Assembly (NCBI GenBank): GCA_048941265.1
Contig: JBHLNT010000132.1
Coordinates: 1 to 11,430, forward strand
Reading direction: 5' to 3'
Origin: Promethearchaeota archaeon
GTDB taxonomy: Archaea > Asgardarchaeota > Lokiarchaeia > Sigyniarchaeales > SOKP01
Length of the DNA stretch: 11,430 nucleotides
Of the stretch, positions 1-11,430 are shown piece by piece. The stretch's first letter is position 1. Every line of letters begins with the position of its first letter. Under the pieces are notes generated by a model that was not told the DNA's origin, made no database searches, and was given only the letters and a program-made list of their open reading frames with translations. A program made the position numbers and the translations under genes.

Positions 1-815
1 GTTTCTTTATCCAATGTCTCAACAATAAAAAAATCCTCCCATATATGCATTCCATTTTTTTCTTCACATTCTACTGATACTCCCGGACCATAAATCTCAC
101 TTAAGCCATAGATATCATACGCATCAATTTTTAAGGTGCCTTCAATTGTTTTTCGTAGATTATCGGACCAAGGCTCAGCGCCGCAGATTGCTTTTTTTAA
201 TGCTAATTTTTCGACATCTATTCCAGCCTTTTTCGCATATTCAGCGATATAAAGCGCATAACTTGGAGTGCAGGTTAGCACAGTAGATCCAAAATCCTGC
301 ATTATCATTAATTGTCTTTCAGTATTGCCTCCTGAAATAGGTATTACAGAGCATCCTACTTTTTCGGCACCATAGTGAAATCCTAGACCTCCCGTAAATA
401 AGCCATAACCATAAGCATTTTGAACAATATCCTTATGAGTTATTCCCGGTGCAACTACGGTCCTTGCCATAAGTTCAGTCCAATCGTCTATATCCTTTTG
501 TGTGTAAGATACGACAGTTGGTTTCCCAGTTGTACCAGAAGAGGCATGAATTCTTATAATCTCATCCATAGGAACTGCATTTAATCCGAAGGGATAATGA
601 TCTCGAAGATCGGTTTTCCAAGTTAACGGTAATTTAGTAATATCAGAAACACTCTTTATATCATTAGGTTTAATACCATTTTCATCGAATCTTCTCTTAT
701 AAAACTCTACATTGTTATAAACATAGTTTGCTAATTTTTTTAATTTCTCCCCTTGAAGCTTTTCTAGCTTATCACGGGGCATGGTTTCCGCTTTTTCATT
801 CCAATAAAGGGTCAT
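1..815 (-). CDS. paaK: Phenylacetate-CoA ligase (ANL adenylate-forming family), 3'-truncated by window edge; not in ORF track
   Basis: Manual translation from ATG 815: [27 protein letters not shown]... with canonical PaaK motifs [12 protein letters not shown] (P-loop), [41 protein letters not shown] and GMHIWEDFF. The frame stays open to the window edge. Confidence 0.93.
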
Positions 816-960
816 AATATATACATCTCAACTTATAATTACCTAAGTTTACTGATATGGTAAATGATAAAAAAAACTAACATGCTTCTCTATTAAAATT
901 TTATCATTTTTTATCATACTGGAAGATTTTAGAAATTATTTTCAAGATATTAGACTTTCT

Positions 961-980
961 AATATTTATATAAGTTTTTT
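961..980 (-). promoter_or_regulatory. Probable BRE-TATA promoter for paaK copy 1
   Basis: Minus strand reads AAAAAACTTATATAAATATT, an A-rich BRE followed by TTATATAA, about 150 nt upstream of ATG 815. The AT-rich background limits specificity. Confidence 0.4.
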
Positions 981-1186
981 CCAAGAATTCATGACGGGAA
1001 TCTTTCATATCTAATTTTAATTGCCAAAAAATGAGAATAATATGGGAATGCTTTTAATATTATAGCGACTAAATTCACTCAATGTTTTAGTTATATTCTA
1101 AAGGAGAAGTCTCTCCCTATAATTTGATTATATAATTAGAACTTTAAAAAAACCAATTAACACAAAAAATTAAGTAACACATAAAA

Positions 1187-1315
1187 ATGTTGATGCAAGG
1201 AGCTAGTGACTATGTATGGCTCTTTTGGGTAATAATTTTTGCATATCTTACCTTTTTAGCGGTCGCTGGATATCATGCTAAAAAAAGACAAAAACTCTGG
1301 AAGACTAAAATTTGA
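1187..1315 (+). CDS. 42-aa single-TM small ORF, probably the 5' remnant of a sodium:solute symporter (SSS) gene; not in ORF track
   Basis: ATG 1187 to TGA 1313-1315: MLMQGASDYVWLFWVIIFAYLTFLAVAGYHAKKRQKLWKTKI. It has one hydrophobic helix and a basic tail. TTATATAA lies at 1128-1135 upstream. Adding one A to the A7 run (1280-1286) would give ...GYHAKKKTKTLED, resembling SSS N-termini. Confidence 0.6.
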   Translation: MLMQGASDYVWLFWVIIFAYLTFLAVAGYHAKKRQKLWKTKI

Positions 1316-1350
1316 AAAATTGAAAAAAAAGATTTTATTGCATGAAAAAA
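1306..1350 (-). terminator. Oligo-T archaeal terminator of paaK copy 2
   Basis: On the minus strand a T6 run follows the stop codon directly, then TTTTTTTTCAATTTTTCAAATTTT. Confidence 0.5.
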
Positions 1351-2685
1351 TTAATATTGCATCATCTTCAACCATCCTTTATAACCATCAGGACGATCTC
1401 TAATATCTTGATATCTAACTGCTTTACCTTCTTGTCTCGGGAGAGTTCCAGGATCAAAAACCATTACATTTATTCCAAGCATTGTAACTTCTCGCAGATT
1501 TTTCTCTAATTCTTTCTTTGCTTTATGTTTATCCATCCCAGGTTTTATCTCAACATTAACTGTAACGTTGTCCATTACTCCAACTGTATGATACATTATT
1601 AGATAAATATCTGTAAAATAATTCGATAAATTAAAAACTTCTTCCTCTATAATTGAAGGATAGACATTAACTCCTTTTATGATTTTCATATCATCCTTTC
1701 GACCTTTAATTCTATCCATAATGAATCCTGTTCTGCCACAGGGACATTCACTTTTATGTAAAGCGGTGATATCACCAGTTCGATATCTAAATATGGGTAT
1801 AGCTTCCTTATATAGGCTGGTTATAACTAATTCTCCATCTTCACCATATGGTAAGGTGTCCCCTGTTTCTAGGTCGACAACTTCAGGATAGAAATAATCA
1901 GACCAAATATGAAGCCCATTTTGCTCTTGACATTCGACTGATGGTCCTGGGCCATATGCTTCTGTCATACCCCAATTATCATAAGCTTTCACACCTAAAC
2001 GATCTTCAATTGTTTTTCTTGTAGATTCTGCCCATCCTTCTGCACCAAGTATTGCATATTTTAGAAATAAATCTTCTTTTTTAATCCCTTCTTCTTCCAT
2101 AACTTGTGCTAACCTTAGACCAAATGAAGGAATTGCATGAAATGCGGTGACTTTAAATGTTTTGAAGAATTCAAGCTGCCGAGAGGTCATACCAGCTCCA
2201 AATGGAATTAGCATTGCCCCCAAAACAGTTGCTCCTTGGGCATATCCAAATCCACCCGTAAATAAGCCGGCAGAAGTAGTATTTTGAAATACATCTTTTT
2301 TTGTCATACCAATTGCACCTAAATTGCGAGCACAAAGATAACTCCAATCATCAAGATCCTTCCTATTATAGAAACCGCAAGTTGGTTGATGTCCTGAGGT
2401 ACCACTGGTTGCGTGCATACGAACTATATCCTCATTTGGAACACAGAGTAGTTTATCTGGAAAGTTATCAAGAAAATCTTGCTTGGTCATAAATGGTACT
2501 TTTTTAAAATCTTCAACACTCTTGATCTCATCTGGAGAGATTCCAGCGTCTTGATATCTTTTTTTCAAAAAAGGTTGATTATCATATAGTCTTTTTAGAG
2601 TCCAGCGTCCCCTCTTAATCCAGTTTTGTTCTAAATTTTTCCAAGGTTGGGTTTCTCTTTTCTTATCAAAATAATTATATTCCGT
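1351..2685 (-). CDS. paaK: Second, divergent phenylacetate-CoA ligase family protein (~444 aa). The real start lies upstream of the track's TTG 2568, probably ACG 2685.
   Basis: Motifs HATSGTSGHQPT, GLFTGG, GAEGW, DNWGMTEAYGPG, FRYRTGD, GRKDDM-IIKGVNVYP and C-terminal GKAVR. The frame is open upstream to TGA 2692-2694 and encodes EYNYFDKKRETQPWKNLEQNWIKRGRWTLKRLYDNQPF, which parallels the N-terminus of copy 1 ([18 protein letters not shown]...YNNVEF). Confidence 0.88.
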   Translation of the reverse strand, partial: TEYNYFDKKRETQPWKNLEQNWIKRGRWTLKRLYDNQPFLKKRYQDAGISPDEIKSVEDFKKVPFMTKQDFLDNFPDKLLCVPNEDIVRMHATSGTSGHQPTCGFYNRKDLDDWSYLCARNLGAIGMTKKDVFQNTTSAGLFTGGFGYAQGATVLGAMLIPFGAGMTSRQLEFFKTFKVTAFHAIPSFGLRLAQVMEEEGIKKEDLFLKYAILGAEGWAESTRKTIEDRLGVKAYDNWGMTEAYGPGPSVECQEQNGLHIWSDYFYPEVVDLETGDTLPYGEDGELVITSLYKEAIPIFRYRTGDITALHKSECPCGRTGFIMDRIKGRKDDMKIIKGVNVYPSIIEEEVFNLSNYFTDIYLIMYHTVGVMDNVTVNVEIKPGMDKHKAKKELEKNLREVTMLGINVMVFDPGTLPRQEGKAVRYQDIRDRPDGYKGWLKMMQY

Positions 2686-2691
2686 TTTTAC

Positions 2692-2698
2692 TCAACTC
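2692..2698 (-). promoter_or_regulatory. Shine-Dalgarno-like GAGTTGA, 6 nt before ACG 2685
   Basis: One mismatch to archaeal GAGGTGA. The same heptamer occurs before the deacylase gene (10702-10708). Confidence 0.55.
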
Positions 2699-2715
2699 GT
2701 CAATTTCTATTAGTT

Positions 2716-2731
2716 ATATTTTATAAAATAT
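2716..2731. promoter_or_regulatory. Perfect 16-bp palindrome ATATTTTATAAAATAT in the divergent promoter region (bidirectional TATA or operator)
   Basis: Self-complementary and contains TTTATAAA on both strands. It lies between the divergent paaK2 and methyltransferase genes. Confidence 0.4.
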
Positions 2732-2850
2732 GGAAGTTTTAATAAAGGCTTTAATAAAAATTATATCAACATTTAAAATTTTACTATGACTAACTCTCAA
2801 TATGGTTCTAACTCTTAGTTTTTTAGTCTAATGGATTCATATTTTCAATC

Positions 2851-3645
2851 ATGAATAAAAAGGAATTTTATGAGGATCACAAGAATTTCTCATTGCGAAC
2901 TATTACAGAATATCTGATATCTCCAGGTATTAGGTGTAAATTTGATATTCTAAAGGTTCATCTTGGCTCTAGAAGATTTTTCAATGGGATTGATTTAGGT
3001 TGCTCTGGGAATTCATTTATTTATTTTTTAGAAAATATTAGACACAAATCCTTTTATGATATTGCGTTAACTCCATTAAATCAATACTCAAGTATATGGT
3101 TAAAAAGATTAAATGAAAATCAGGCATATCAATATTGGAATCCGCTATGTGGTGATATAACCTGCTTGCCTTATAGGGATAAAACATTTGATTTTGTAAG
3201 TGCTTTAGATATCTTAGAGCACATAAAAGATGATCCTAAAGCTGTCTCGGAAATAAGCAGAGTTCTCAAAAGGAAAGGTATTGTAGTTATAACAGTTCCC
3301 CATCGAATGAAATATTATACTAAACAGGATCAATTAATTGGACATTATAGGAGATATGAGATTGACCAATTAATTTCTCTTTTTCAGAAATTCAACCTTA
3401 AAAATCTTAAAATATTTGGAGTATATGGAAGATTAATGAAAATATCAGATATTCAATCTATTAATCCAAAAAAAACCGAAGTTAAACTTCAAAATTTAAG
3501 GAAGGTTTATATATCAAATACCCTATTTCGCATGATTTGGAATATCTTTGTTAAAGTTGGATCCTTATTAATGAAATACGATGCTAGAACTAAGGATCTA
3601 AACAGCAAAATGAATCTTGCTTTTGTATTTATAAAGCAAATATGA
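2851..3645 (+). CDS. Class I SAM-dependent methyltransferase (Methyltransf_11-like)
   Basis: Motif I variant IDLGCSGNS, then GDITCLPYRDKTFDFVSALDILEHI, EISRVLKRKGIVVITVP and GHYRRY. Confidence 0.88.
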   Translation: MNKKEFYEDHKNFSLRTITEYLISPGIRCKFDILKVHLGSRRFFNGIDLGCSGNSFIYFLENIRHKSFYDIALTPLNQYSSIWLKRLNENQAYQYWNPLCGDITCLPYRDKTFDFVSALDILEHIKDDPKAVSEISRVLKRKGIVVITVPHRMKYYTKQDQLIGHYRRYEIDQLISLFQKFNLKNLKIFGVYGRLMKISDIQSINPKKTEVKLQNLRKVYISNTLFRMIWNIFVKVGSLLMKYDARTKDLNSKMNLAFVFIKQI

Positions 3646-3680
3646 GTATATAAAAGAGAACTTAATATAAATAAAAGATT

Positions 3681-4091
3681 TTAATCAAAACTTTCTTTCT
3701 TAATTTTTTCAAACATACTTACATATTCTTCAATAAATTTTTCATCATTTGTTTTCTCGATTTTTTCTACAAGTTCTATTGATTTGGATAAAGTTTCCGC
3801 ACGTCGTTTGATTTGATTCAAAAAGAATTGTTTATTAAAAGTTCCTTTGGTAACATTCAATTGAGATTTCATCTCGTTTATACTATCTTCCATTTTATTT
3901 TCTACTTCGATCACCTTGTCAAAGACACCTAGCATTAACTCTTTCTTCCGTTGCTCTAATTTTATACAATTATCACAAACTATTTCTTGATCGGGTTTAT
4001 GTTCGCCGATTTTGACCATAAAAGGATTTCCGCATCTCTCACACGGCTTTAGTTCAAGGACAAAGTTCGAATTTTCATCGTGACTGGGCAT
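3681..4091 (-). CDS. Hypothetical Zn-ribbon + coiled-coil protein (136 aa from ATG 4091; track start TTG 4103)
   Basis: CERCGNPF...CDNC (two CxxC pairs) followed by a charged heptad-rich helical region. Confidence 0.8.
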   Translation of the reverse strand: MPSHDENSNFVLELKPCERCGNPFMVKIGEHKPDQEIVCDNCIKLEQRKKELMLGVFDKVIEVENKMEDSINEMKSQLNVTKGTFNKQFFLNQIKRRAETLSKSIELVEKIEKTNDEKFIEEYVSMFEKIKKESFD

Positions 4092-4214
4092 GAATAACAA
4101 CAATTAAGTCTTAAATATATGTTTTACCTAATTTAATAATCGTTTTTTAATAATATAATATTTTCTGAAACTAATTTATAAAAGTTATAATTTGATACAA
4201 TATTTTGAAATCTG

Positions 4215-5018
4215 ATGGAGCTAATTTGGTATATCATTATACTTTTAATTGTTTTAGGTTTCTTGGCTGGAGCAATAAGTAGTATTGCTGGAATAGGAGG
4301 AGGTGTTTTCTTTGTTCCTATTATGGTTTTAATATTTCTAATGCCGATAAATGTGGCAATTGACACGTCTACATTCATAATATTAATATCTTCAGGAGCG
4401 GCATTTTTCACTTATTTAAAGGATAATAGAATTGCCATCAAACCCACAATAATTTTTTCAGCATTTTCAATTTTAGGATCAGTTACTTGCATGATAATAT
4501 TTCTTTTTATACAAATAGAAAATACTATCTTAAGAATCTTATTTGCTATTATATTACTATTTGCTGGATTAAATATGATAATAAAAGCATTAAATACTAG
4601 AAAAAGCATGAAAATCCAAAAAATTGAGAATAAAGATGATTTTTCGTTAAATGACCACGACTATAAATCAAATCTGCATAAATCTATACCATTATTCTTC
4701 TTAGCAGGTTTTATTGCTAATTTATTAGGAATTGGGGGAGGTGTGATTAATACACCAGCTTTAAACATTGTTTTAGGTTATCCTATCCATAACTCTACAG
4801 CTATGTCAACAGGAATCATTTTTTTCACTGCAATTATTAATACAATCCTTAAAAGCATCTATGGGCAAATTGATTATATAGTTGGCTTATTTATTGCTAT
4901 TGGTGCGGTATTTGGTGCGATTTTTGGAGCAAAAATTTCAAAATATTTGCCAAAAGTCTACCTTCAATTTTTAGTGGCTATTATTTTAATGTTTTTAGCT
5001 ATTAGAATGTTTATTTAG
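4215..5018 (+). CDS. Sulfite exporter TauE/SafE (TSUP) family membrane protein
   Basis: Two internal repeats, SSIAGIGGGVFFVP and ANLLGIGGGVINTP, with about 8 hydrophobic helices in 267 aa. Confidence 0.92.
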   Translation: MELIWYIIILLIVLGFLAGAISSIAGIGGGVFFVPIMVLIFLMPINVAIDTSTFIILISSGAAFFTYLKDNRIAIKPTIIFSAFSILGSVTCMIIFLFIQIENTILRILFAIILLFAGLNMIIKALNTRKSMKIQKIENKDDFSLNDHDYKSNLHKSIPLFFLAGFIANLLGIGGGVINTPALNIVLGYPIHNSTAMSTGIIFFTAIINTILKSIYGQIDYIVGLFIAIGAVFGAIFGAKISKYLPKVYLQFLVAIILMFLAIRMFI

Positions 5019-5124
5019 AATTGTTAACGAATCAAAAATATTTTTATTCTGTATTTCTCTTCCCTACTAAATAAATATTGAGATAATTTATACAAAGACT
5101 TTCTTTTTATGCGGTATTTTCAGA

Positions 5125-5448
5125 TTAAACACAAAAAACATCCCTGAAGTTAAAAATAGCCCACAGGAACCCAGAATCTCTGAGCCTCCAAAAGTATTTC
5201 AATAATTCTTTGTATATCTAGGACCTGCTTTTATTTTTATTCTTTCAAGATCTATGTGGCTCTTTTCAATGGCAAGCATGCTCACAGGTCCTATATTAAG
5301 TCTATTTTATATTATTCCTATTGATATTACTTATAGTGAAATGAAGAAGCATACAGCTCAACTCGCACCAAAGCGATATTGGGCAATATTTCTAGCTGTA
5401 TTAAGTGGAATCTTCATGATATTCTTATCACTTCTTGGTTTAGGTTAA
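5125..5448 (+). pseudogene. Collapsed remnant of an Nramp-like (divalent metal/APC superfamily) transporter; start approximate
   Basis: The frame of ORF 5254..5448 extends upstream as ...PRISEPPKVFQ*FFVYLGPAFIF-ILSRSMWLFSMASMLTGP..., with an in-frame TAA at 5203-5205. EPPK...LGPAFI resembles the start of Nramp-like proteins and is joined to two terminal TM helices. Family call is from memory. Confidence 0.55.
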
Positions 5449-5620
5449 ATATTAGAAATATATTGTATCCTAATAACATATCAAGATTATTTCAAGTAAA
5501 TTTAAATAAAATTTATTTTATATTAGATCCGGCAATATATGCTGAGTTTTATTTAATTGGATTTTTGCTAAAATCTTAACTATAATTGGTATTCAAAAGA
5601 AACCTTCTAAGGATAGATAT

Positions 5621-6814
5621 TTGACTGACAATATTAACGAAATCAACATAAAGTTGGTTATTCTCGGAAAAGGAGGAGTTGGAAAGACAACCTTGGCAAA
5701 TAAGTTTTTAGAGAATCCGATTTCGGAAAGCTATATACCAACTATAGGATATAATATTCTTAGAAAGGAATATGAATTTAAAGTAAAAAATAAAGTTATT
5801 ATAGTAAATATTTGGGATATAGGGGGTCAAAAATCCTTTAATCCTCTAAATCCTGCCACTTTTACTGACGCGGATGCTGCATTCTTAATTTTTGACTTAA
5901 CAAAACCAAATGAAACGTTACAAAATTTTAAACATGAATATATTGATAATTTAGAAAAATATTCTAAAAATTGTGTTACAACTATAGTAGGGAATAAATT
6001 AGACTTATTAAAGGATAGAAATATGATAAAAGATATTATAAAAAACAATTTTACTAATGAAGATAAAGTTCTACTCGTTTCAGCCAAAACTGGAGAGAAT
6101 CTCAATGAATCTTTCGAATTATTAGTATATAATTTTTTAAAAATTGCCCAGTTTAAAATTCGTCATGGGAGTATAAAGGGAATAGGGGAAGAATATCTTA
6201 AATTAATCGGAAAAAAGGAAAAGGAATTAACCAGATTATATATCGATTTATCAAACATTGATACATTTTTGAAAAATAAAAAAAAGAAAGTTAAACAAAT
6301 TAAGAAGGAAAAGGTTAGTTTTGACAATAACGAGCGAAATATCGAAAACTACAAGTTCCTTCAAGAGGAGTTAGAAAAAATAGAGATACAGCGGAACAAA
6401 ATTAAAAAAAATTTTTTGACAGATTTAATAGAAATAGAAGAATTAATGATTTTTTTGAAAAAATCTTCAATTGGTTCCGTTAAAAGTTCAATTAACACAC
6501 TTAAAGAACAATTGACTGACATGAGCAAGGAATTTCAGTCAAATTTAAATTCGATAAGAACCTTAGTTAAAGAAAAATCTTTTGTACTCAAAGCAAAAGC
6601 AGAAATCCCTTTGACTTCTGAGGAGGAAATTGAATTAATACCCGAGCAAGAAATCTCTAAAGAAGTTTCAGTGAAATCAAAATCCACGAAAGATATACCT
6701 CAAAATGATTTATATCTATTATACGAGAATGAAAATCCAAAAAAAAAAGCTTTATGGCGTGGTAAAGAAACTAAAGGTTTTTTAGAATGGAAGAACAATT
6801 TAGAAAAAGTCTAA
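5621..6814 (+). CDS. Rab-like small GTPase domain + long coiled-coil/charged C-terminal extension
   Basis: G1 GKGGVGKT, G2 YIPTIG, G3 WDIGGQ, G4 NKLD and G5 SAK within about aa 10-175, followed by about 220 aa of extension. No C-terminal Cys. TTG start. Confidence 0.92.
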   Translation: MTDNINEINIKLVILGKGGVGKTTLANKFLENPISESYIPTIGYNILRKEYEFKVKNKVIIVNIWDIGGQKSFNPLNPATFTDADAAFLIFDLTKPNETLQNFKHEYIDNLEKYSKNCVTTIVGNKLDLLKDRNMIKDIIKNNFTNEDKVLLVSAKTGENLNESFELLVYNFLKIAQFKIRHGSIKGIGEEYLKLIGKKEKELTRLYIDLSNIDTFLKNKKKKVKQIKKEKVSFDNNERNIENYKFLQEELEKIEIQRNKIKKNFLTDLIEIEELMIFLKKSSIGSVKSSINTLKEQLTDMSKEFQSNLNSIRTLVKEKSFVLKAKAEIPLTSEEEIELIPEQEISKEVSVKSKSTKDIPQNDLYLLYENENPKKKALWRGKETKGFLEWKNNLEKV

Positions 6815-6828
6815 GGAAAAAATTAAAA

Positions 6829-6834
6829 GGGTGA
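6829..6834 (+). promoter_or_regulatory. Shine-Dalgarno GGGTGA, 6 nt before ATA 6841
   Basis: Matches the archaeal GGTGA core and lies in the 26-nt gap after the GTPase stop. Confidence 0.6.
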
Positions 6835-6840
6835 ATAAAA

Positions 6841-7521
6841 ATATCTAAAAAAGAGGAGATAATATCCGAAAAGGAATTTCAAAAAATAAAGGAACAGGTT
6901 AAAGATATCGACCAAAATTTAAAAGAAGTTATAAAAAAATCTGAAGCCGGAATAAAAGATTTAGATAAAAGATTTGACCGGAAAATTGAAGATTTAATTA
7001 TGATAATCGATCAAAAATTAGAGGATCAAATCAAATTACTAGAAAAAAATTTCCAAGAACAAGTTATGAGCCTAACGGGACAAATTAATGAATTTGGGAA
7101 TAAATTAGGGAATATAACTGCTGAATTATCGAATAATCTGGAAATTATACAAGACCAGATAAAGAACCAAAAAAATGAAAATATTACCTTTAATAATGAA
7201 ATCAATGAACTTATAACAAAAACTACTTCTAAACTTGATTCAGAATTTAAGGACATTAAAGGCCAACAAGATGTTTTAAAAGTATCATTTGATGTTCTGG
7301 AAAAAAAAATATTTGACGAGGCAAAATCAATGATATATAGTGAAGTAAGAATGGTTTGCAAAGACAAGGAAGATGAAATACTGATGAATATGTGGATTGA
7401 TGAATTAAAAGAAATTATTAATGATTTTGATAAATTAAAAGAAATGAATCCGAAGGATTTAAAAATACAAGTAGATGAGATTTCGCAAATTATCGCTTCA
7501 TTTAAGAAAAAATTTGCTTAA
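6841..7521 (+). CDS. Hypothetical all-helical coiled-coil protein (~226 aa). Probable start is ATA 6841 rather than the track's ATG 7000.
   Basis: The frame is open from 6835. The 53 extra codons (M)SKKEEIISEKEFQKIKEQVKDIDQNLKEVIKKSEAGIKDLDKRFDRKIEDLI have the same heptad/charged character as the rest. No in-frame ATG/GTG/TTG occurs before 7000. Confidence 0.8.
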   Translation: MSKKEEIISEKEFQKIKEQVKDIDQNLKEVIKKSEAGIKDLDKRFDRKIEDLIMIIDQKLEDQIKLLEKNFQEQVMSLTGQINEFGNKLGNITAELSNNLEIIQDQIKNQKNENITFNNEINELITKTTSKLDSEFKDIKGQQDVLKVSFDVLEKKIFDEAKSMIYSEVRMVCKDKEDEILMNMWIDELKEIINDFDKLKEMNPKDLKIQVDEISQIIASFKKKFA

Positions 7522-7529
7522 AATAGTGC

Positions 7530-7537
7530 TTTTTTTT
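7530..7537 (+). terminator. T8 terminator closing the GTPase/coiled-coil unit
   Basis: T8 run 9 nt after the stop at 7521. Confidence 0.5.
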
Positions 7538-7687
7538 AAAATCTTGTTAATAATATCTTTCATAAGTATATTTTATGATTTTAAAAATATTTTTCTAAGG
7601 GATTTGTCTAGTATAGATGAATAAAGATTTAAATATCAAAATCGTGTTAATGACTTTAGGGAAATAATTAATAATATAGAGGGAATA

Positions 7688-7963
7688 ATGGTTTTGTTAC
7701 AATCTTTTGACATTTTGAACTCAATATTACAGATTTTATGCTCCCGAACATCAATGAAGTCTGAAAATACTAAAGTTCGGTTAAAAGGAAAATTTCTATT
7801 TGTAGCCTTTTTTTTATTTTTAGCAGGTGCTATCTCAGATACAATATTCTTGAGAGATATTCTTACATTATTAATCACTCGAATTATACTGATATCCGCA
7901 TCCATCTTCTTTTATTTCGGATTTATATTACCGAATTTTGTTAAAAAGAGGTTTGAATCTTAA
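7688..7963 (+). pseudogene. Internally deleted minigene of a Lokiarchaeia-type multi-TM (7TM-like) membrane protein; the 91-aa ORF remains open
   Basis: GAGGGA precedes ATG 7688. The C-terminal SMKSENTKVRLKGKFLFVAF...RIILISASIFFYFGFILPNFVKK matches my recollection of the last two helices of a family of ~220-aa Loki proteins, and only a short N-terminal stub precedes it. T8 follows at 7983-7990. Confidence 0.55.
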
Positions 7964-8039
7964 TTTTATCTAAACCTTAATCTTTTTTTTGATATTATCT
8001 TTTAATTAAGTATATTAATTTCGTGGAGTATATAGAAAT

Positions 8040-8852
8040 ATGTCAAATCGAATTGGATTGCTAAGATTAGATTATACTTTTAGCGTGATAATTCCTATGC
8101 TTATAGCTATATATTTAAATCGCCTTAATCCTTTTCGACACATAGATATCCTTATCGGATTCGTTTTTTTAGCCATCACAGGTAATACTTGGAATGATGT
8201 CATAGATATGAAAGATCCGACTGAAGTGGAAACTCTAAAAAGGGTCGAAGGGTATCATCCTCGAGAGATCTTTACAATAGGATTTATAAGCTTCTTTTTA
8301 GGTATTACTTTATTATTGCGAACGTGTATTCAACATTTCATTAATGCTGTTTTTCTAGTCATAATCATTATTAGTGTTCTCATATATTGTAAATGGATAA
8401 AACCCATTCCTTTTGTAAACCACCTATTATTAGGTGTCTCTCACATGCTCTTACCCTACTTTATGATTAAAGTTGACGCGGGATTACCTTTATTAGATTT
8501 TGAAAATGAGGGACCGTTAGTTTTTGCGTTTATTGCATTCGCCCTTACAGGCCAATTCGTACATGAAGTTATTGATGGTGATGCTTTAGTGAAACGTTTC
8601 AGTCTACGCACATGTCAGCTATTAATCTGGATATTTTCAATTATATCATTAATTTTAGCGATATGGGCATTTGTTATTATTCCACATTTTTATTTCATTC
8701 CATTTGTCTTCTTTCCAATTGGTACGATGTATACATTTAGGAGGCCTACTAAGTCAACACAGGGAGTGAAAGATGTTGGAATATTAATTGGTAATTTCAT
8801 CCTGGTTTATTTTATTTGTTTAATCATCCTACAGATGGAAAGAGTTATTTAA
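8040..8852 (+). CDS. UbiA prenyltransferase family membrane protein
   Basis: N-terminal LLRL, first Asp-rich motif NTWNDVIDMKD, YCKWIKP (Y-x-x-x-K) and second acidic motif HEVIDGD, with about 9 TM helices. GGAG lies upstream. Confidence 0.82.
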   Translation: MSNRIGLLRLDYTFSVIIPMLIAIYLNRLNPFRHIDILIGFVFLAITGNTWNDVIDMKDPTEVETLKRVEGYHPREIFTIGFISFFLGITLLLRTCIQHFINAVFLVIIIISVLIYCKWIKPIPFVNHLLLGVSHMLLPYFMIKVDAGLPLLDFENEGPLVFAFIAFALTGQFVHEVIDGDALVKRFSLRTCQLLIWIFSIISLILAIWAFVIIPHFYFIPFVFFPIGTMYTFRRPTKSTQGVKDVGILIGNFILVYFICLIILQMERVI

Positions 8853-8882
8853 AATCATTTAATTAGGAAAGATTATTTTATC

Positions 8883-10247
8883 ATGACTGAAAATAAAAGA
8901 ATTCCTGCTTTTAAGAAAAATTCATGCAATTTATGTGGACTATGTCTTAATAAGTGTCCAGTCATGCATTTACCGATTGATACAGCAAGAGAAGAAATAA
9001 AGAATCTTATTGAAGGAAAAGAATCAAACTATGCACTCTCAAAATGTAATAGCTGTGTATCATGTAATTTATTTTGTTCAGAAGAAGCAAATCCATATCA
9101 ATTAATTCTTGAAAGATGGAATGATTTGTATAAAAAGAGAGGAGCGCCTCCATTATATAAATTTATCTGCCCTACTGAAACTCCGAACATTTGGCAGCTT
9201 CTCAATGTATTTCTTTCAAACACAGAAAGAAATTGGATTAATGAATGGATGAATTATTTACCCGAATCAGATGATACGATTTTTTTAGTCGGTAATTATG
9301 CCCATTTATTTCCATTTATATTCGGGGGTAGTAAATTATTAAACTATTTCAAACCTATTGATCTAATTGACCATTGGGAAGCCGGAGCATATTTATATCA
9401 GGGAGGATATTTGGATTTAGTGCGAAAAATTGCGTTAAAAACAAAAGAAGATCTCGATAAATGGGGTATGAAAAATGTAATTATCCCTACAGATGCAGTT
9501 CATATTCAATTTTCATTAGTGCATCCGAATGAAATGGGAGTTAAACATGATCAAAACTTTATTAATTTCCATGAATGGCTTGTAAACAATATTTATTCTG
9601 GAAAAATACCTACGCCCCGAGCTCCCTTAAACCTTTCCGTAACTATTCATGATAATTGTTATTCAAAATTTCAGAAAGGCAAATTTTGGGAAGCTCCAAG
9701 GGAAATTCTAAAAAAATGTGGTTGCAGGCTCATTGAAATGAAACATATTAAAAAAGATTCCTTATGCTGTGGATTTGGAGCAGGAGCATCTTGGGTAAAA
9801 AATATCTCTCTACCATTTGATATAATCTATGAAGGATCCAAAAAGTTTAAGGAAGCTGAAGCGACGGGAGCTAAAGCCTTAGTTTCTTATTGTAGTGGGT
9901 GTCTTTATCTTTTATGGGCAACAAAGGAACTTTTAGGAAGCAAACTAGATATTTTTCATATAGTTGAAATAGTGCGTATGGCAATGGGAGAAGAAATACC
10001 TTATCCAGAAGCCCATATAAGCCGTGCATGGGATGTAATCGCGATTATAACATATCAACTCTTAATCTCTACTTTTCAAAATAATTTTTTCATTAAACGT
10101 TTAACTTATGATAAAAATAGAAGTACATTCAGTCCAAAAAATTATAGATTGCTCAAATTATTGAGATATTTATTTGAGATTCCCTTCTTCAGGAAATTTT
10201 ATGCTAAGTTATTTAGAATGCAAATGCCCTTAATGAAAACTCGCTAA
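8883..10247 (+). CDS. Fe-S oxidoreductase, HdrD/GlpC-like (4Fe-4S dicluster + CCG domain)
   Basis: CNLCGLCLNKCP and CNSCVSCNLFC ferredoxin motifs, plus a C-terminal CCG domain TIHDNCY...CCGFGAG...YCSGC. Confidence 0.9.
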   Translation: MTENKRIPAFKKNSCNLCGLCLNKCPVMHLPIDTAREEIKNLIEGKESNYALSKCNSCVSCNLFCSEEANPYQLILERWNDLYKKRGAPPLYKFICPTETPNIWQLLNVFLSNTERNWINEWMNYLPESDDTIFLVGNYAHLFPFIFGGSKLLNYFKPIDLIDHWEAGAYLYQGGYLDLVRKIALKTKEDLDKWGMKNVIIPTDAVHIQFSLVHPNEMGVKHDQNFINFHEWLVNNIYSGKIPTPRAPLNLSVTIHDNCYSKFQKGKFWEAPREILKKCGCRLIEMKHIKKDSLCCGFGAGASWVKNISLPFDIIYEGSKKFKEAEATGAKALVSYCSGCLYLLWATKELLGSKLDIFHIVEIVRMAMGEEIPYPEAHISRAWDVIAIITYQLLISTFQNNFFIKRLTYDKNRSTFSPKNYRLLKLLRYLFEIPFFRKFYAKLFRMQMPLMKTR

Positions 10248-10276
10248 TATATTCAAATAAAAACTCGTCTAATATT

Positions 10277-10290
10277 AAAACTTTATAAAT
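10277..10290 (+). promoter_or_regulatory. Probable BRE-TATA promoter for the 76-aa gene
   Basis: AAAACTTTATAAAT about 85 nt before ATG 10374. An SD-like AGGTAA lies 7 nt before the ATG. Confidence 0.4.
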
Positions 10291-10373
10291 TTTAAAATCT
10301 AAATTTTAGTAAATATAAATAAAAATTAGAGTTATTTTTCAAAATACCAGATCTCAGAGAAGGTAATTATAAA

Positions 10374-10604
10374 ATGGTAAATATGGAAGATCTAAAAAAA
10401 CTTTTAGACGATTATATGTTAGAATCTGACATTCCATTCGGCGAACTGAAACCTTACATTTTAAATGAGTTTGAGTGGAAAGTAGATCGCATGAAAAAAT
10501 TAGAATTTATTATAAGAGGTAAGGTTATTCCGGATAATATGAAAGTAAGTGATGTATTAACAACTTACTTACCGATGGAAACATTAATTGTAAAAGAGGC
10601 TTGA
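10374..10604 (+). CDS. 76-aa hypothetical protein, putative ubiquitin-like (beta-grasp) fold lacking C-terminal Gly-Gly
   Basis: Good SD and a stand-alone ORF followed by T-rich sequence. FIIRGKVIPDNMKVSD aligns without gaps to ubiquitin LIFAGKQLEDGRTLSD. The fold call is an inference. Confidence 0.75.
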   Translation: MVNMEDLKKLLDDYMLESDIPFGELKPYILNEFEWKVDRMKKLEFIIRGKVIPDNMKVSDVLTTYLPMETLIVKEA

Positions 10605-10701
10605 GCTTCGCTTTTAACGCATTTTTACGGAAAGAATATTATTTTTTAAACTTTTAAATTTTTTTAGAATGTAATACTAATTATTCTAATACTAAACTTT
10701 A

Positions 10702-10708
10702 GAGTTGA
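10702..10708 (+). promoter_or_regulatory. Shine-Dalgarno-like GAGTTGA, 5 nt before CTG 10714
   Basis: Identical to the heptamer in front of paaK copy 2. Confidence 0.5.
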
Positions 10709-10713
10709 TTATT

Positions 10714-11430
10714 CTGAGTTATGATATCATTATTAAAAACGGAAAAATAATTGATGGTGCAGGTAATCCATGGTATCGAGCTGATATCGGTATTAAAGAC
10801 GGATTTATTACCAAAATCAGTCCAATTTTGATTGAGGATGCCGATAAAATAATTGATGCTTATAATTTAGTTGTTTGTCCTGGTTTTATTGATGTGCATT
10901 CACATACAGATTACAGCCTGGTGTTAGGTTACCAATTTACCCGAGTTTCCTCATTCATACGACAAGGAATCACATCTTGTGTTATTGGTATGTGCGGAGA
11001 TGGTTTAGCCCCAATTCCTAAAGAAAGAAGAAAGGAAGCTATAGAACAAATAATGAAAATGACAGGACTAAATATGAAAATTGATCTTCCGTGGAATACT
11101 TATGAAGAATATTTAAAACAGTTGGAAAAAAATCAATGTGCAATTAATCTAGTTCCCGTAGTGGGATATAATAATATAAGACTTGCCGGAGGAGCGAGAT
11201 TCGAAAATCGGGAACCAACCAATGAAGAATTAAACAAAATGAAAGAATATCTAAGAGAAGCAATGGAAGCAGGGGCATTTGGAATGAGTACCGGACTTAT
11301 CTATGCTCCCCAGATTTATGCAAAAACTGAAGAACTAATCGAGTTAGCTAAGGTTTTAAGAGATTATAACGCGCTTTATTTTTCTCATATTAGGGGAGAA
11401 GGAAAAACGGTCATTGATGCGGTCAAGGAA
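10714..11430 (+). CDS. N-acyl-D-amino-acid deacylase (D-aminoacylase, amidohydrolase superfamily), 3'-truncated; not in ORF track. Start is CTG 10714 or TTG 10705.
   Basis: (M)SYDIIIKNGKIIDGAGNPWYRADIGIKDG..., PGFIDVHSHTD (HxH metal motif), RQGITSCVIGMCGDG, EAMEAGAFGMSTGLIYAP and YFSHIRGEG. Confidence 0.93.
   Translation, partial: MSYDIIIKNGKIIDGAGNPWYRADIGIKDGFITKISPILIEDADKIIDAYNLVVCPGFIDVHSHTDYSLVLGYQFTRVSSFIRQGITSCVIGMCGDGLAPIPKERRKEAIEQIMKMTGLNMKIDLPWNTYEEYLKQLEKNQCAINLVPVVGYNNIRLAGGARFENREPTNEELNKMKEYLREAMEAGAFGMSTGLIYAPQIYAKTEELIELAKVLRDYNALYFSHIRGEGKTVIDAVKE

Follow-up and report, generated by a model that had tools for sequence, protein, structure and literature searches.

Three genes on one contig of a Lokiarchaeial genome probably begin at near-cognate start codons, and comparative analysis points to a trait shared across a low-GC group of Lokiarchaeia. 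The contig, here termed the window, is an 11,430-nucleotide stretch from a Promethearchaeota archaeon (Lokiarchaeia, Sigyniarchaeales; assembly GCA_048941265.1, contig JBHLNT010000132.1, positions 1 to 11,430). In it, a PaaK-like AMP-binding gene, a coiled-coil gene and an amidohydrolase gene carry ACG, ATA and CTG, respectively, where a Shine-Dalgarno (SD) motif and the starts of homologues place the first codon. Dozens of genes in this genome and its relatives appear to begin at ATT, ATA, ATC, CTG or ACG behind an SD, and standard gene callers misplace their starts.

The source assembly (genome G000) comprises 5.0 Mb in 361 contigs at 30.5% GC, and the window is its contig C122; the nearest public proteins of the window are labeled Promethearchaeota or Lokiarchaeota. 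Throughout, canonical starts are ATG, GTG and TTG, near-cognate codons are one-base variants of ATG, and the comparison class consists of the 54 unrelated sense codons. Among the relatives, G001 and G008 belong to the same genus as G000, whose family is denoted f1, and G026 represents the sister family f2.

Near-cognate codons in start position at three genes

The 3' end of the 16S rRNA in this assembly (contig C222) reads ...GGATCACCTCCT, which sets the SD register to GGAGGTGATCC; GGGTGA at the coiled-coil gene is thus a true SD, and GAGTTGA at the other two genes is an SD with one mismatch. The spacings of 6, 6 and 5 nt between motif and codon lie within the range of the genome's ATG starts (4-9 nt after GGTGA, mode 6-7), and GTTGA before ATG starts peaks genome-wide at spacing 6 (19/71). 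GAGTTGA itself recurs as a conserved one-mismatch SD variant, at sites 1 and 3 of the window and in the homologues of G008 and of G001 and G003. An earlier sequence-only reading had picked out the three sites, and all of its coordinates and spacings were verified (Table 1); so was its statement that no standard start can supply the N-terminal 39 and 53 residues of the first two proteins. The comparison with orthologous starts that it proposed places canonical codons exactly opposite all three sites.

At site 1, the product is predicted to be a PaaK-like AMP-binding ligase from the presence of both PF00501 (AMP-binding, 4.6e-11) and PF14535 (AMP-binding_C_2, 7.2e-16). An in-frame TGA lies two codons upstream of the ACG, and the first ATG, GTG or TTG of the frame is found at 2568, so a standard caller drops 39 residues. 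Six full-length orthologues align starting at residue 2-3 of the ACG reading. In G008 (87% identity), GAGTTGA-ataata-TTG stands where G000 has ACG, with identical motif and spacing; the codon opposite the ACG is ATG in G017 and TTG in G018, and in three more distant genomes the ATG sits one or two codons upstream of this position. The G018 orthologue (G018:C7:5224-6701) matches in two frames, covering residues 2-88 and 68-442, which suggests a frameshift or assembly error in that genome.

At site 2, the last three letters of the SD (6832-6834) are an in-frame stop, TGA, and the first canonical start of the frame is ATG 7000, so that a start there drops 53 residues. Homologues align starting at residue 3. 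G001 and G003 carry GTGA-gcaaaa-ATG in exact register with the GTGA-ataaaa-ATA of G000, and G000's own paralogue (C317) has ATG at the codon aligned with ATA. Upstream, an in-frame ATG at 6787 overlaps the end of the preceding GTPase gene and begins a frame of 15 codons closed by the TGA of the SD (6787-6834, plus strand); it could be a short upstream open reading frame (ORF) coupled to the coiled-coil gene. The GTPase gene itself starts at a TTG, as the earlier reading had it; this TTG is at 5621, and the Ras domain begins at residue 11.

Site 3 leaves more room for another reading. G001 and a G003 paralogue carry GAGTTGA-N5-ATG AGT TAT GAT, the G003 orthologue (88% identity) has GAGTTGA-ttaat-TTG with TTG opposite the CTG, and the G017 copies have ATG opposite it. 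A canonical TTG at 10705 is in frame with no stop before the CTG and would yield a plausible N-terminus, MIILSYDIII; the amidohydrolase could start there, with CTG an ordinary leucine codon, and we give this a chance slightly below even. This TTG lacks a separate SD and lies within the conserved GAGTTGA, as part of which it is kept in homologues, and the ATG that homologues place 5 nt behind GAGTTGA, at the CTG position, identifies 10714 as the ancestral start.

Table 1. Features at the three proposed start sites, in window coordinates
Feature	Position	Strand	Remark
SD-like motif GAGTTGA, PaaK-like gene	2698-2692	-	6/7 match to SD register GAGGTGA
Spacer GTAAAA (6 nt), PaaK-like gene	2691-2686	-	sequence
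ACG, proposed start of PaaK-like gene	2685-2683	-	aligned with orthologue starts
PaaK-like AMP-binding coding sequence from ACG, 444 codons + stop	1351..2685	-	Pfam and orthologues
First canonical start TTG, PaaK-like frame	2566..2568	-	39 codons downstream of ACG
SD GGGTGA, coiled-coil gene	6829..6834	+	perfect match, GGTGA register
ATA, proposed start of coiled-coil gene, after spacer ATAAAA	6841..6843	+	aligned with ATG in homologues
Coiled-coil coding sequence, 226 codons + stop	6841..7521	+	no Pfam family
First canonical start ATG, coiled-coil frame	7000..7002	+	53 codons downstream of ATA
SD-like motif GAGTTGA, amidohydrolase gene	10702..10708	+	conserved in homologues
In-frame canonical TTG within GAGTTGA, alternative start	10705..10707	+	three codons upstream of CTG
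CTG at ancestral start position, after spacer TTATT (5 nt)	10714..10716	+	homologue alignment
Amidohydrolase (D-aminoacylase-like) coding sequence, leaves window at its end	10714..11430	+	Pfam Amidohydro_3, Amidohydro_1

Enrichment behind SD motifs across the genome

The genome-wide analysis used 4,174 stop-to-stop ORFs that do not overlap, are 100 codons or longer and cover 84% of the genome. Upstream of first ATG starts, G makes up about 25% of the letters at positions -8 to -12, up from about 8%. A tally of codons behind GGTGA was restricted to those that begin a run of 100 or more sense codons and lie no more than 10 codons downstream of an in-frame stop; raw counts of GGTGA+N+codon without this ORF condition gave no signal, drowned by internal Gly-Asp codons. 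At a spacing of 6 nt, the tally returned 18 ATG, 7 TTG and 2 GTG together with 21 ATT, 16 ATA, 3 ATC and 2 CTG, and 25 for all 54 unrelated codons combined. At other spacings, ATT and ATA mostly reached 0-7 each, apart from a single value of 10 for ATT (spacing 2) and a second ATA peak of 12 at spacing 5. Together, ATT and ATA account for 37/96 codons at spacing 6 versus 39/359 at in-frame flanking positions (p=2e-9).

The same preference is seen across the pre-start region, which here means over 6 codons upstream of the first canonical start. Here, an SD of five or more bases at spacing 3-9 precedes 128/3,080 near-cognate codons versus 287/13,999 other codons (Fisher p=1.4e-10), a doubled frequency which indicates that the anatomy seen in the window exceeds chance. 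By codon, the enrichment was carried by ATT (58 SD-led of 1205, p=3e-8), CTG (8/64, p=5e-5), ATA (32/948, p=0.007), ATC (13/316, p=0.016) and ACG (4/50, p=0.02), with AAG (12/380, p=0.10) and AGG (1/117, p=0.91) at the other end.

We then applied strict filters. Candidates had to carry an SD at an aligned spacing of 5-7, follow a stop within 10 codons, precede every canonical start by 15 codons or more, and open an ORF no shorter than 150 codons. The resulting set holds 53 near-cognate codons (ATT 28, ATA 18, ATC 3, CTG 3, ACG 1) versus 11 of all other codons, where a near-cognate share of 18% is expected (binomial p=3e-29); it amounts to about one strict near-cognate for every five SD-led canonical starts (53 vs 268). 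Among coding-like leads of at least 25 codons, 34 of 68 have a 5-mer SD and a near-cognate codon. Among the remaining 34, several have a weaker SD followed by ATA, CTG or ACG (for example uS12 on C1, a flavodoxin on C321 and an ACG on C24), and these further cases imply that the strict set undercounts.

Near-cognate starts also differ from ATG starts in their SDs. Motifs of at least 6 bases precede 53% of near-cognate versus 32% of ATG starts, a spacing of exactly 6 is found for 36/66 versus 77/313, and the SD contains GGTGA in 33/66 versus 105/434. Such strong, exactly spaced SDs fit a need to keep a codon that pairs weakly fixed in the P site.

The trait is common to the order. Strict near-cognate versus other counts are 53/11 in G000 (5.0 Mb, 268 SD-led canonical starts), 9/5 in G001 (0.8 Mb, 50 SD-led canonical starts) and 5/1 in G026 (0.8 Mb, 47 SD-led canonical starts). 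None were seen in the one outgroup sample, G066 from another Asgard family, a single genome of 0.4 Mb and higher GC (41%), which gave 0/3 at 42 SD-led canonical starts, versus 8.3 near-cognates expected at the G000 ratio (Poisson p=2.5e-4).

At a spacing of 6, the TGA of GGTGA is in frame with the codon that follows, which would also be expected if translation began upstream, at ATG 6787 or at a TTG four codons before the ACG, and read through or recoded the stop. The distance from such a start to the TGA would be 15 codons at site 2 (ATG 6787 to TGA 6832) and 3 codons at site 1, where the start would be a TTG. We rejected readthrough on the length of the open frame upstream of the stop: the ATT/ATA class (n=29) and the ATG class (n=11) share a median of 7 codons. 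Moreover, ATA has a second peak at spacing 5, at which the codon and the TGA are in different frames; near-cognate starts are also found where the stop after the SD is TAA or TAG; and other genes of the window end with TGA. The readthrough scheme is therefore barely credible.

Coding character of the extensions

Initiation at the near-cognate codons implies that the stretch up to the first canonical start is translated, and by two measures this stretch appears to be coding and needed. A codon log-odds score gave +0.138 per codon for the 53 extensions, close to gene bodies (+0.175) and apart from non-coding leads (about -0.1); the score discriminates weakly, and thus backs the strict set but cannot size the whole class. 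A Pfam scan that covered 10 of the 53 strict candidates found domains that start within or before the extension (Table 2). In the frame of the transcription factor TFB, the zinc ribbon lies entirely before the first canonical start.

Table 2. Pfam domains in near-cognate-started frames
Start	Domain	Residues	First canonical start (residue)
ATT	ATP-grasp_2 (profile 2-201 of 202)	3-194	23
ATA	adh_short	7-198	31
ATC	Ras	11-168	111
ATT	GPN-loop ATP_bind_1	6-250	64
ATT	TFIIB zinc ribbon	25-64	79
ACG	ferredoxin cluster	33-90	52

Public annotation of the GPN-loop GTPase illustrates the consequences. Its 120 best hits display at least four different N-termini: 24 of the 120 are 238-aa entries, two of which were examined and begin downstream of the P-loop; 10 are 252-aa entries, three of which were examined and start MGTAGSGKS, i.e., an internal ATA or ATT was taken as Met; and others are 258 aa long (MLLNYF) or extended upstream to 263-288 aa. 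The inconsistency agrees with the expectation of the earlier reading that gene callers truncate proteins of this lineage. The strict set also includes five small Ras/GTPase-like genes (on C120, C143, C225, C301 and C355) with P-loops located before the first canonical codon, so that standard callers would truncate five eukaryote-signature GTPases.

Conservation across relatives

Beyond the window, near-cognate starts recur at the same codon in separate genomes. The GPN-loop GTPase has ATT in 18, ATA in 1 and ATG in 5 of 24 f1 genomes at the aligned start, while 11 sister-family genomes have ATG (8), GTG (2) or ATC (1). In 21 loci from other Asgard families, neither ATT nor ATA was found at the aligned codon; one locus carries ATC followed two codons later by TTG, and another is ambiguous.

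For TFB (G000:C247:20207-21175, plus strand), the ATT start follows AGGTG-TAA, and the arrangement AGGTG(T)-stop-xxx-ATT TCA AGT TGG is found in the 10 genomes of the same genus and in at least three other genera. G008 has an in-frame GTG two codons upstream of the ATT, and in four genera a GTG or TTG occurs upstream; the sister families start at ATG. The ribosomal protein gene uS12 (G000:C1:8610-9044, plus strand) has an ATA start behind TGGTGT, and across 18 family genomes the codon is ATA in 4, ATC in 5, ATG in 8 and TTG in 1; in two f2 genomes and one f4 genome the start is likely ATT.

A succinyl-CoA-synthetase-like (sucC-like) gene has ATT in 5 genomes of the same genus and ATG, GTG or TTG in 3 of other genera. 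A polyprenyl synthase has AGGTGA followed by ATA in G000 and G003, and CAGTGA followed by ATG at the same codon in G001. Compared with orthologues, a second ACG of G000 (C33) aligns with ATG, and a CTG (C30) aligns with ATG twice. AUU, AUA and AUC starts thus seem to be tolerated and maintained on essential, highly expressed genes of a free-living archaeal lineage.

The aIF1 gene and the initiator tRNA

The initiation factor aIF1, the fidelity factor to which the sequence-only reading had pointed, itself has a gene that appears to start at ATT. The gene (G000:C112:9670-9996, minus strand; Pfam SUI1) continues after an upstream TGA as AAA TAC AAA ATT AAA GAA GAA GCG ATC TGT. With translation starting at the ATT, residues 5-103 of the product can be aligned to residues 3-101 of the 102-residue solved aIF1 4mo0, and the first ATG, GTG or TTG comes at ORF residue 21, within the zinc knuckle. 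Among 21 informative f1 genomes, 16 have ATT and 3 ATC at this position, usually 9 nt behind a conserved AAGGTTGTGA; two genomes have a nearby in-frame GTG, and in G018 and G082 the entire aIF1 ORF is devoid of ATG, GTG and TTG. A weak start signal is thus conserved on the fidelity factor's own gene. Elsewhere in Asgard archaea, aIF1 likely starts at ATA in two f2 genomes and in families f11 and f17, and at CTG in f6; the remaining Asgard genomes have ATG, GTG or TTG.

The protein also differs in its basic loop 1 region, which reads I-I-I-S-N-D-K/T-R-K-W-G in Loki sequences versus R-I-K-V-R-x-E-K-R-K-W-G in other Asgard sequences. Order-wide changes include FxG for IEG, ASGG for ACGG and fewer basic residues before K-R-K-W-G. 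A link of the loop differences to initiation stringency is possible; they are present both with and without an ATT start on aIF1 and are therefore treated as a lead only.

Decoding of the near-cognate codons might in principle involve a non-standard initiator, either a second initiator tRNA with a changed anticodon or an elongator tRNA-Ile, as the dominant codons ATT, ATA and ATC all encode Ile. ARAGORN found no tRNA-Met in G000 nor in 1.6 Mb of G001 plus G026. Similarity to the G026 initiator tRNA located the gene in G000 (G000:C212, about 20480-20600, minus strand); it has A1, three G-C pairs and the anticodon CAT. Two introns interrupt the gene, the first following the anticodon loop and the second within the T-arm, which explains why ARAGORN and simple patterns miss it. 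The tRNA genes of these genomes bear introns and are difficult to detect, so a second initiator could have been missed. The sole initiator-type tRNA found in G000 is nonetheless of the ordinary kind, an altered initiator was not seen there, CTG and ACG starts would require yet other tRNAs, and about 70% of first canonical starts in G000 are ATG. We thus consider a non-standard initiator very unlikely, and favor near-cognate starts read by the ordinary one.

Reliability of the window sequence and counter-evidence

The assembly is fragmented (361 contigs) with a recorded contamination of 4.8%, and sequencing or assembly errors could in theory have created false codons or masked a frameshift. We compared the window with contigs from three further runs, of which X1 may be the source sample, X2 is another sample of the same study and X3 stems from another study. 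Contigs of X1, X2 and X3 cover the codon at 2683-2685, where the sole listed X2/X3 difference in the stretch is at 2628 (X2); X1 and X2 contigs cover 6841-6843 with no listed difference there; and all three cover the CTG at 10714-10716 with 0 other letters. No insertions or deletions are among the differences listed in the X1-X3 contigs over the window. Errors would also not cluster 6 nt behind GGTGA, and as many as 19 genomes, each assembled on its own, agree in having ATT, ATA or ATC at a given codon. Errors are thus a most improbable source of the three codons. In the same comparison, position 3048 is joined to 7402 in contigs of three runs, the two being separated by 15 other letters; with only 22 letters on its shorter side, this junction is probably a repeat or another organism.

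Several observations weigh against near-cognate initiation in the window and as a lineage trait. The near-cognate codon itself is not conserved at the three window sites, where relatives are canonical, and each codon could therefore be a recent, poorly translated mutation; at site 3, the in-frame TTG 10705 means that a non-canonical start is not forced. The N-terminal 38 codons of the PaaK-like gene show 9 synonymous and 10 non-synonymous differences to G008, versus 155 and 50 in the rest (p=0.013). ACG is statistically the weakest codon, with marginal enrichment and a single entry in the strict set, and the 11 strict candidates with other codons mark the false-positive floor of the pipeline. 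Behind SDs of the GGAGG and GAGGT types, the peak of ATT and ATA is weak or missing, and the outgroup control is one small genome of higher GC. The cross-run check compared contigs rather than raw reads, with 56 lesser differences not shown, and no RNA run is listed as containing the window stretch.

Some of these observations would be explained if the three window codons were recent start losses, leaving dying genes or truncated proteins that start at TTG 2568 and ATG 7000 (or TTG 10705), with no lineage trait involved. The canonical orthologous codons make the changes young, the PaaK-like N-terminus is relatively richer in non-synonymous change, and loss may be tolerable given a second PaaK paralogue that adjoins the gene in the window and the many paralogues of the amidohydrolase. 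All three ORFs are, however, intact through the extension and keep SD-like motifs at proper spacing, random decay would not usually yield three cases in about ten genes, the same genome holds 53 strict cases with coding-like extensions, and near-cognate starts have long been maintained in other genes. We therefore regard start loss as unlikely, and genuine near-cognate initiation as the best account of the window. An Rfam scan of the window found no RNA family.

Discussion

Relaxed start selection in this lineage, as the sequence-only reading had proposed from three sites, is supported by the genome-wide SD tally it had called for, which was strongly positive (53 vs 11 strict), and by near-cognate starts conserved across genera. 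Its details shift: the codons are near-cognate as proposed, but the main ones are ATT and ATA with some ATC, while CTG is rarer and ACG marginal; initiation is SD-led, but needs a strong, exactly spaced GGTGA-type SD; and the trait of the lineage extends order-wide rather than to one genome only.

In the mechanism we envisage, an SD, usually in the GGTGA register, would pair with the 3' end of the 16S rRNA, and a spacer of 5-7 nt, mostly exactly 6, would bring into the P site a codon that differs from AUG by one base, mostly AUU or AUA and less often AUC, CUG or ACG. The ordinary initiator tRNA (anticodon CAU) would start the protein there, presumably with Met, i.e., the near-cognate codons would be decoded by Met-tRNAi. 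The lineage would thereby initiate at a permissive stringency, which may in turn be set by feedback on aIF1, whose own gene is ATT- or ATC-started in the family. In the literature, the bacterial IF3 gene infC is reported to have an AUU start and to be autoregulated (PMC4705826), eIF1 is reported to be autoregulated via an AUG in weak context (PMC6237735, PMC4705826), and Sulfolobus aIF1 is reported to discriminate against AUU (PMC4705826). The ATT/ATC start on aIF1 together with the reported IF3 and eIF1 autoregulation makes an aIF1-AUU feedback a natural inference. We tentatively propose that a permissive stringency under control of AUU/AUC-started aIF1 is the archaeal counterpart of the IF3-AUU and eIF1 loops, while holding this somewhat more doubtful than not.

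The parallels are close but incomplete. As with infC, the gene for a factor that rejects non-canonical starts begins with AUU, aIF1 having ATT or ATC in 19/21 family genomes; in contrast to infC, the SUI1 fold of aIF1 is unrelated to IF3, the near-cognate start extends beyond the factor gene to at least 50 genes, and feedback on aIF1 is here inferred only. aIF1 is homologous to eIF1, and both fidelity factors carry a weak initiation signal on their own mRNA, which in eukaryotes is a weak Kozak context around a scanned AUG and here is a non-AUG codon behind an SD.

NCBI translation table 11 lists ATT, ATC, ATA and CTG as starts, which are rare in model bacteria. The codons and the SD-led setting are the same here, yet we find 53 strict cases in about 4,000 ORFs, including TFB, uS12 and aIF1, kept across genera. 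AUA and AUU starts are used in mitochondria and other AT-rich genomes, and A/T-ending start variants in a genome of 30.5% GC resemble these; at the GPN gene, Asgard relatives of higher GC retain canonical starts. In contrast to these systems, the initiator tRNA of G000 shows no anticodon change, and near-cognate aIF1 starts (ATA, CTG) in Asgard families with sampled loci of 37-47% GC imply that AT pressure is only part of the explanation.

Ribosome profiling in Haloferax volcanii placed about 30% of putative alternative initiation sites at near-cognate codons, which the authors set aside as possible false positives (PMC7261190). Those were alternative or internal sites, whereas the starts described here are main, conserved starts of annotated-type genes. 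Two reviews call SD sequences rare in Lokiarchaea (PMC12993045, PMC7531240). A full-text literature search, which did not cover supplements that possibly hold start-codon tables, returned no ATT/ATA starts in Asgard archaea and no non-AUG aIF1 start.

For annotation, near-cognate initiation means that in G000 five Ras/GTPase-like genes, TFB, uS12 and aIF1 would be truncated or missed by standard callers, which accept ATG, GTG and TTG only, and Lokiarchaeial proteomes are mined for eukaryote-like proteins. If the proposed aIF1 feedback is true, the output of 50-100 genes with AUU, AUA, AUC, CUG or ACG starts, including TFB, uS12 and several Ras-like GTPases, would track the level of aIF1. Near-cognate aIF1 starts in f11 and f17 (ATA) and in f6 (CTG) would make the feedback old within Asgard archaea. 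Eukaryotes are the strictest users of AUG, and this lineage is the one closest to them; an old Asgard feedback on aIF1 would bear on the origin of eukaryotic start-codon stringency control. With an AUU start on aIF1, all three domains of life would regulate a start-codon fidelity factor via its own weak start.

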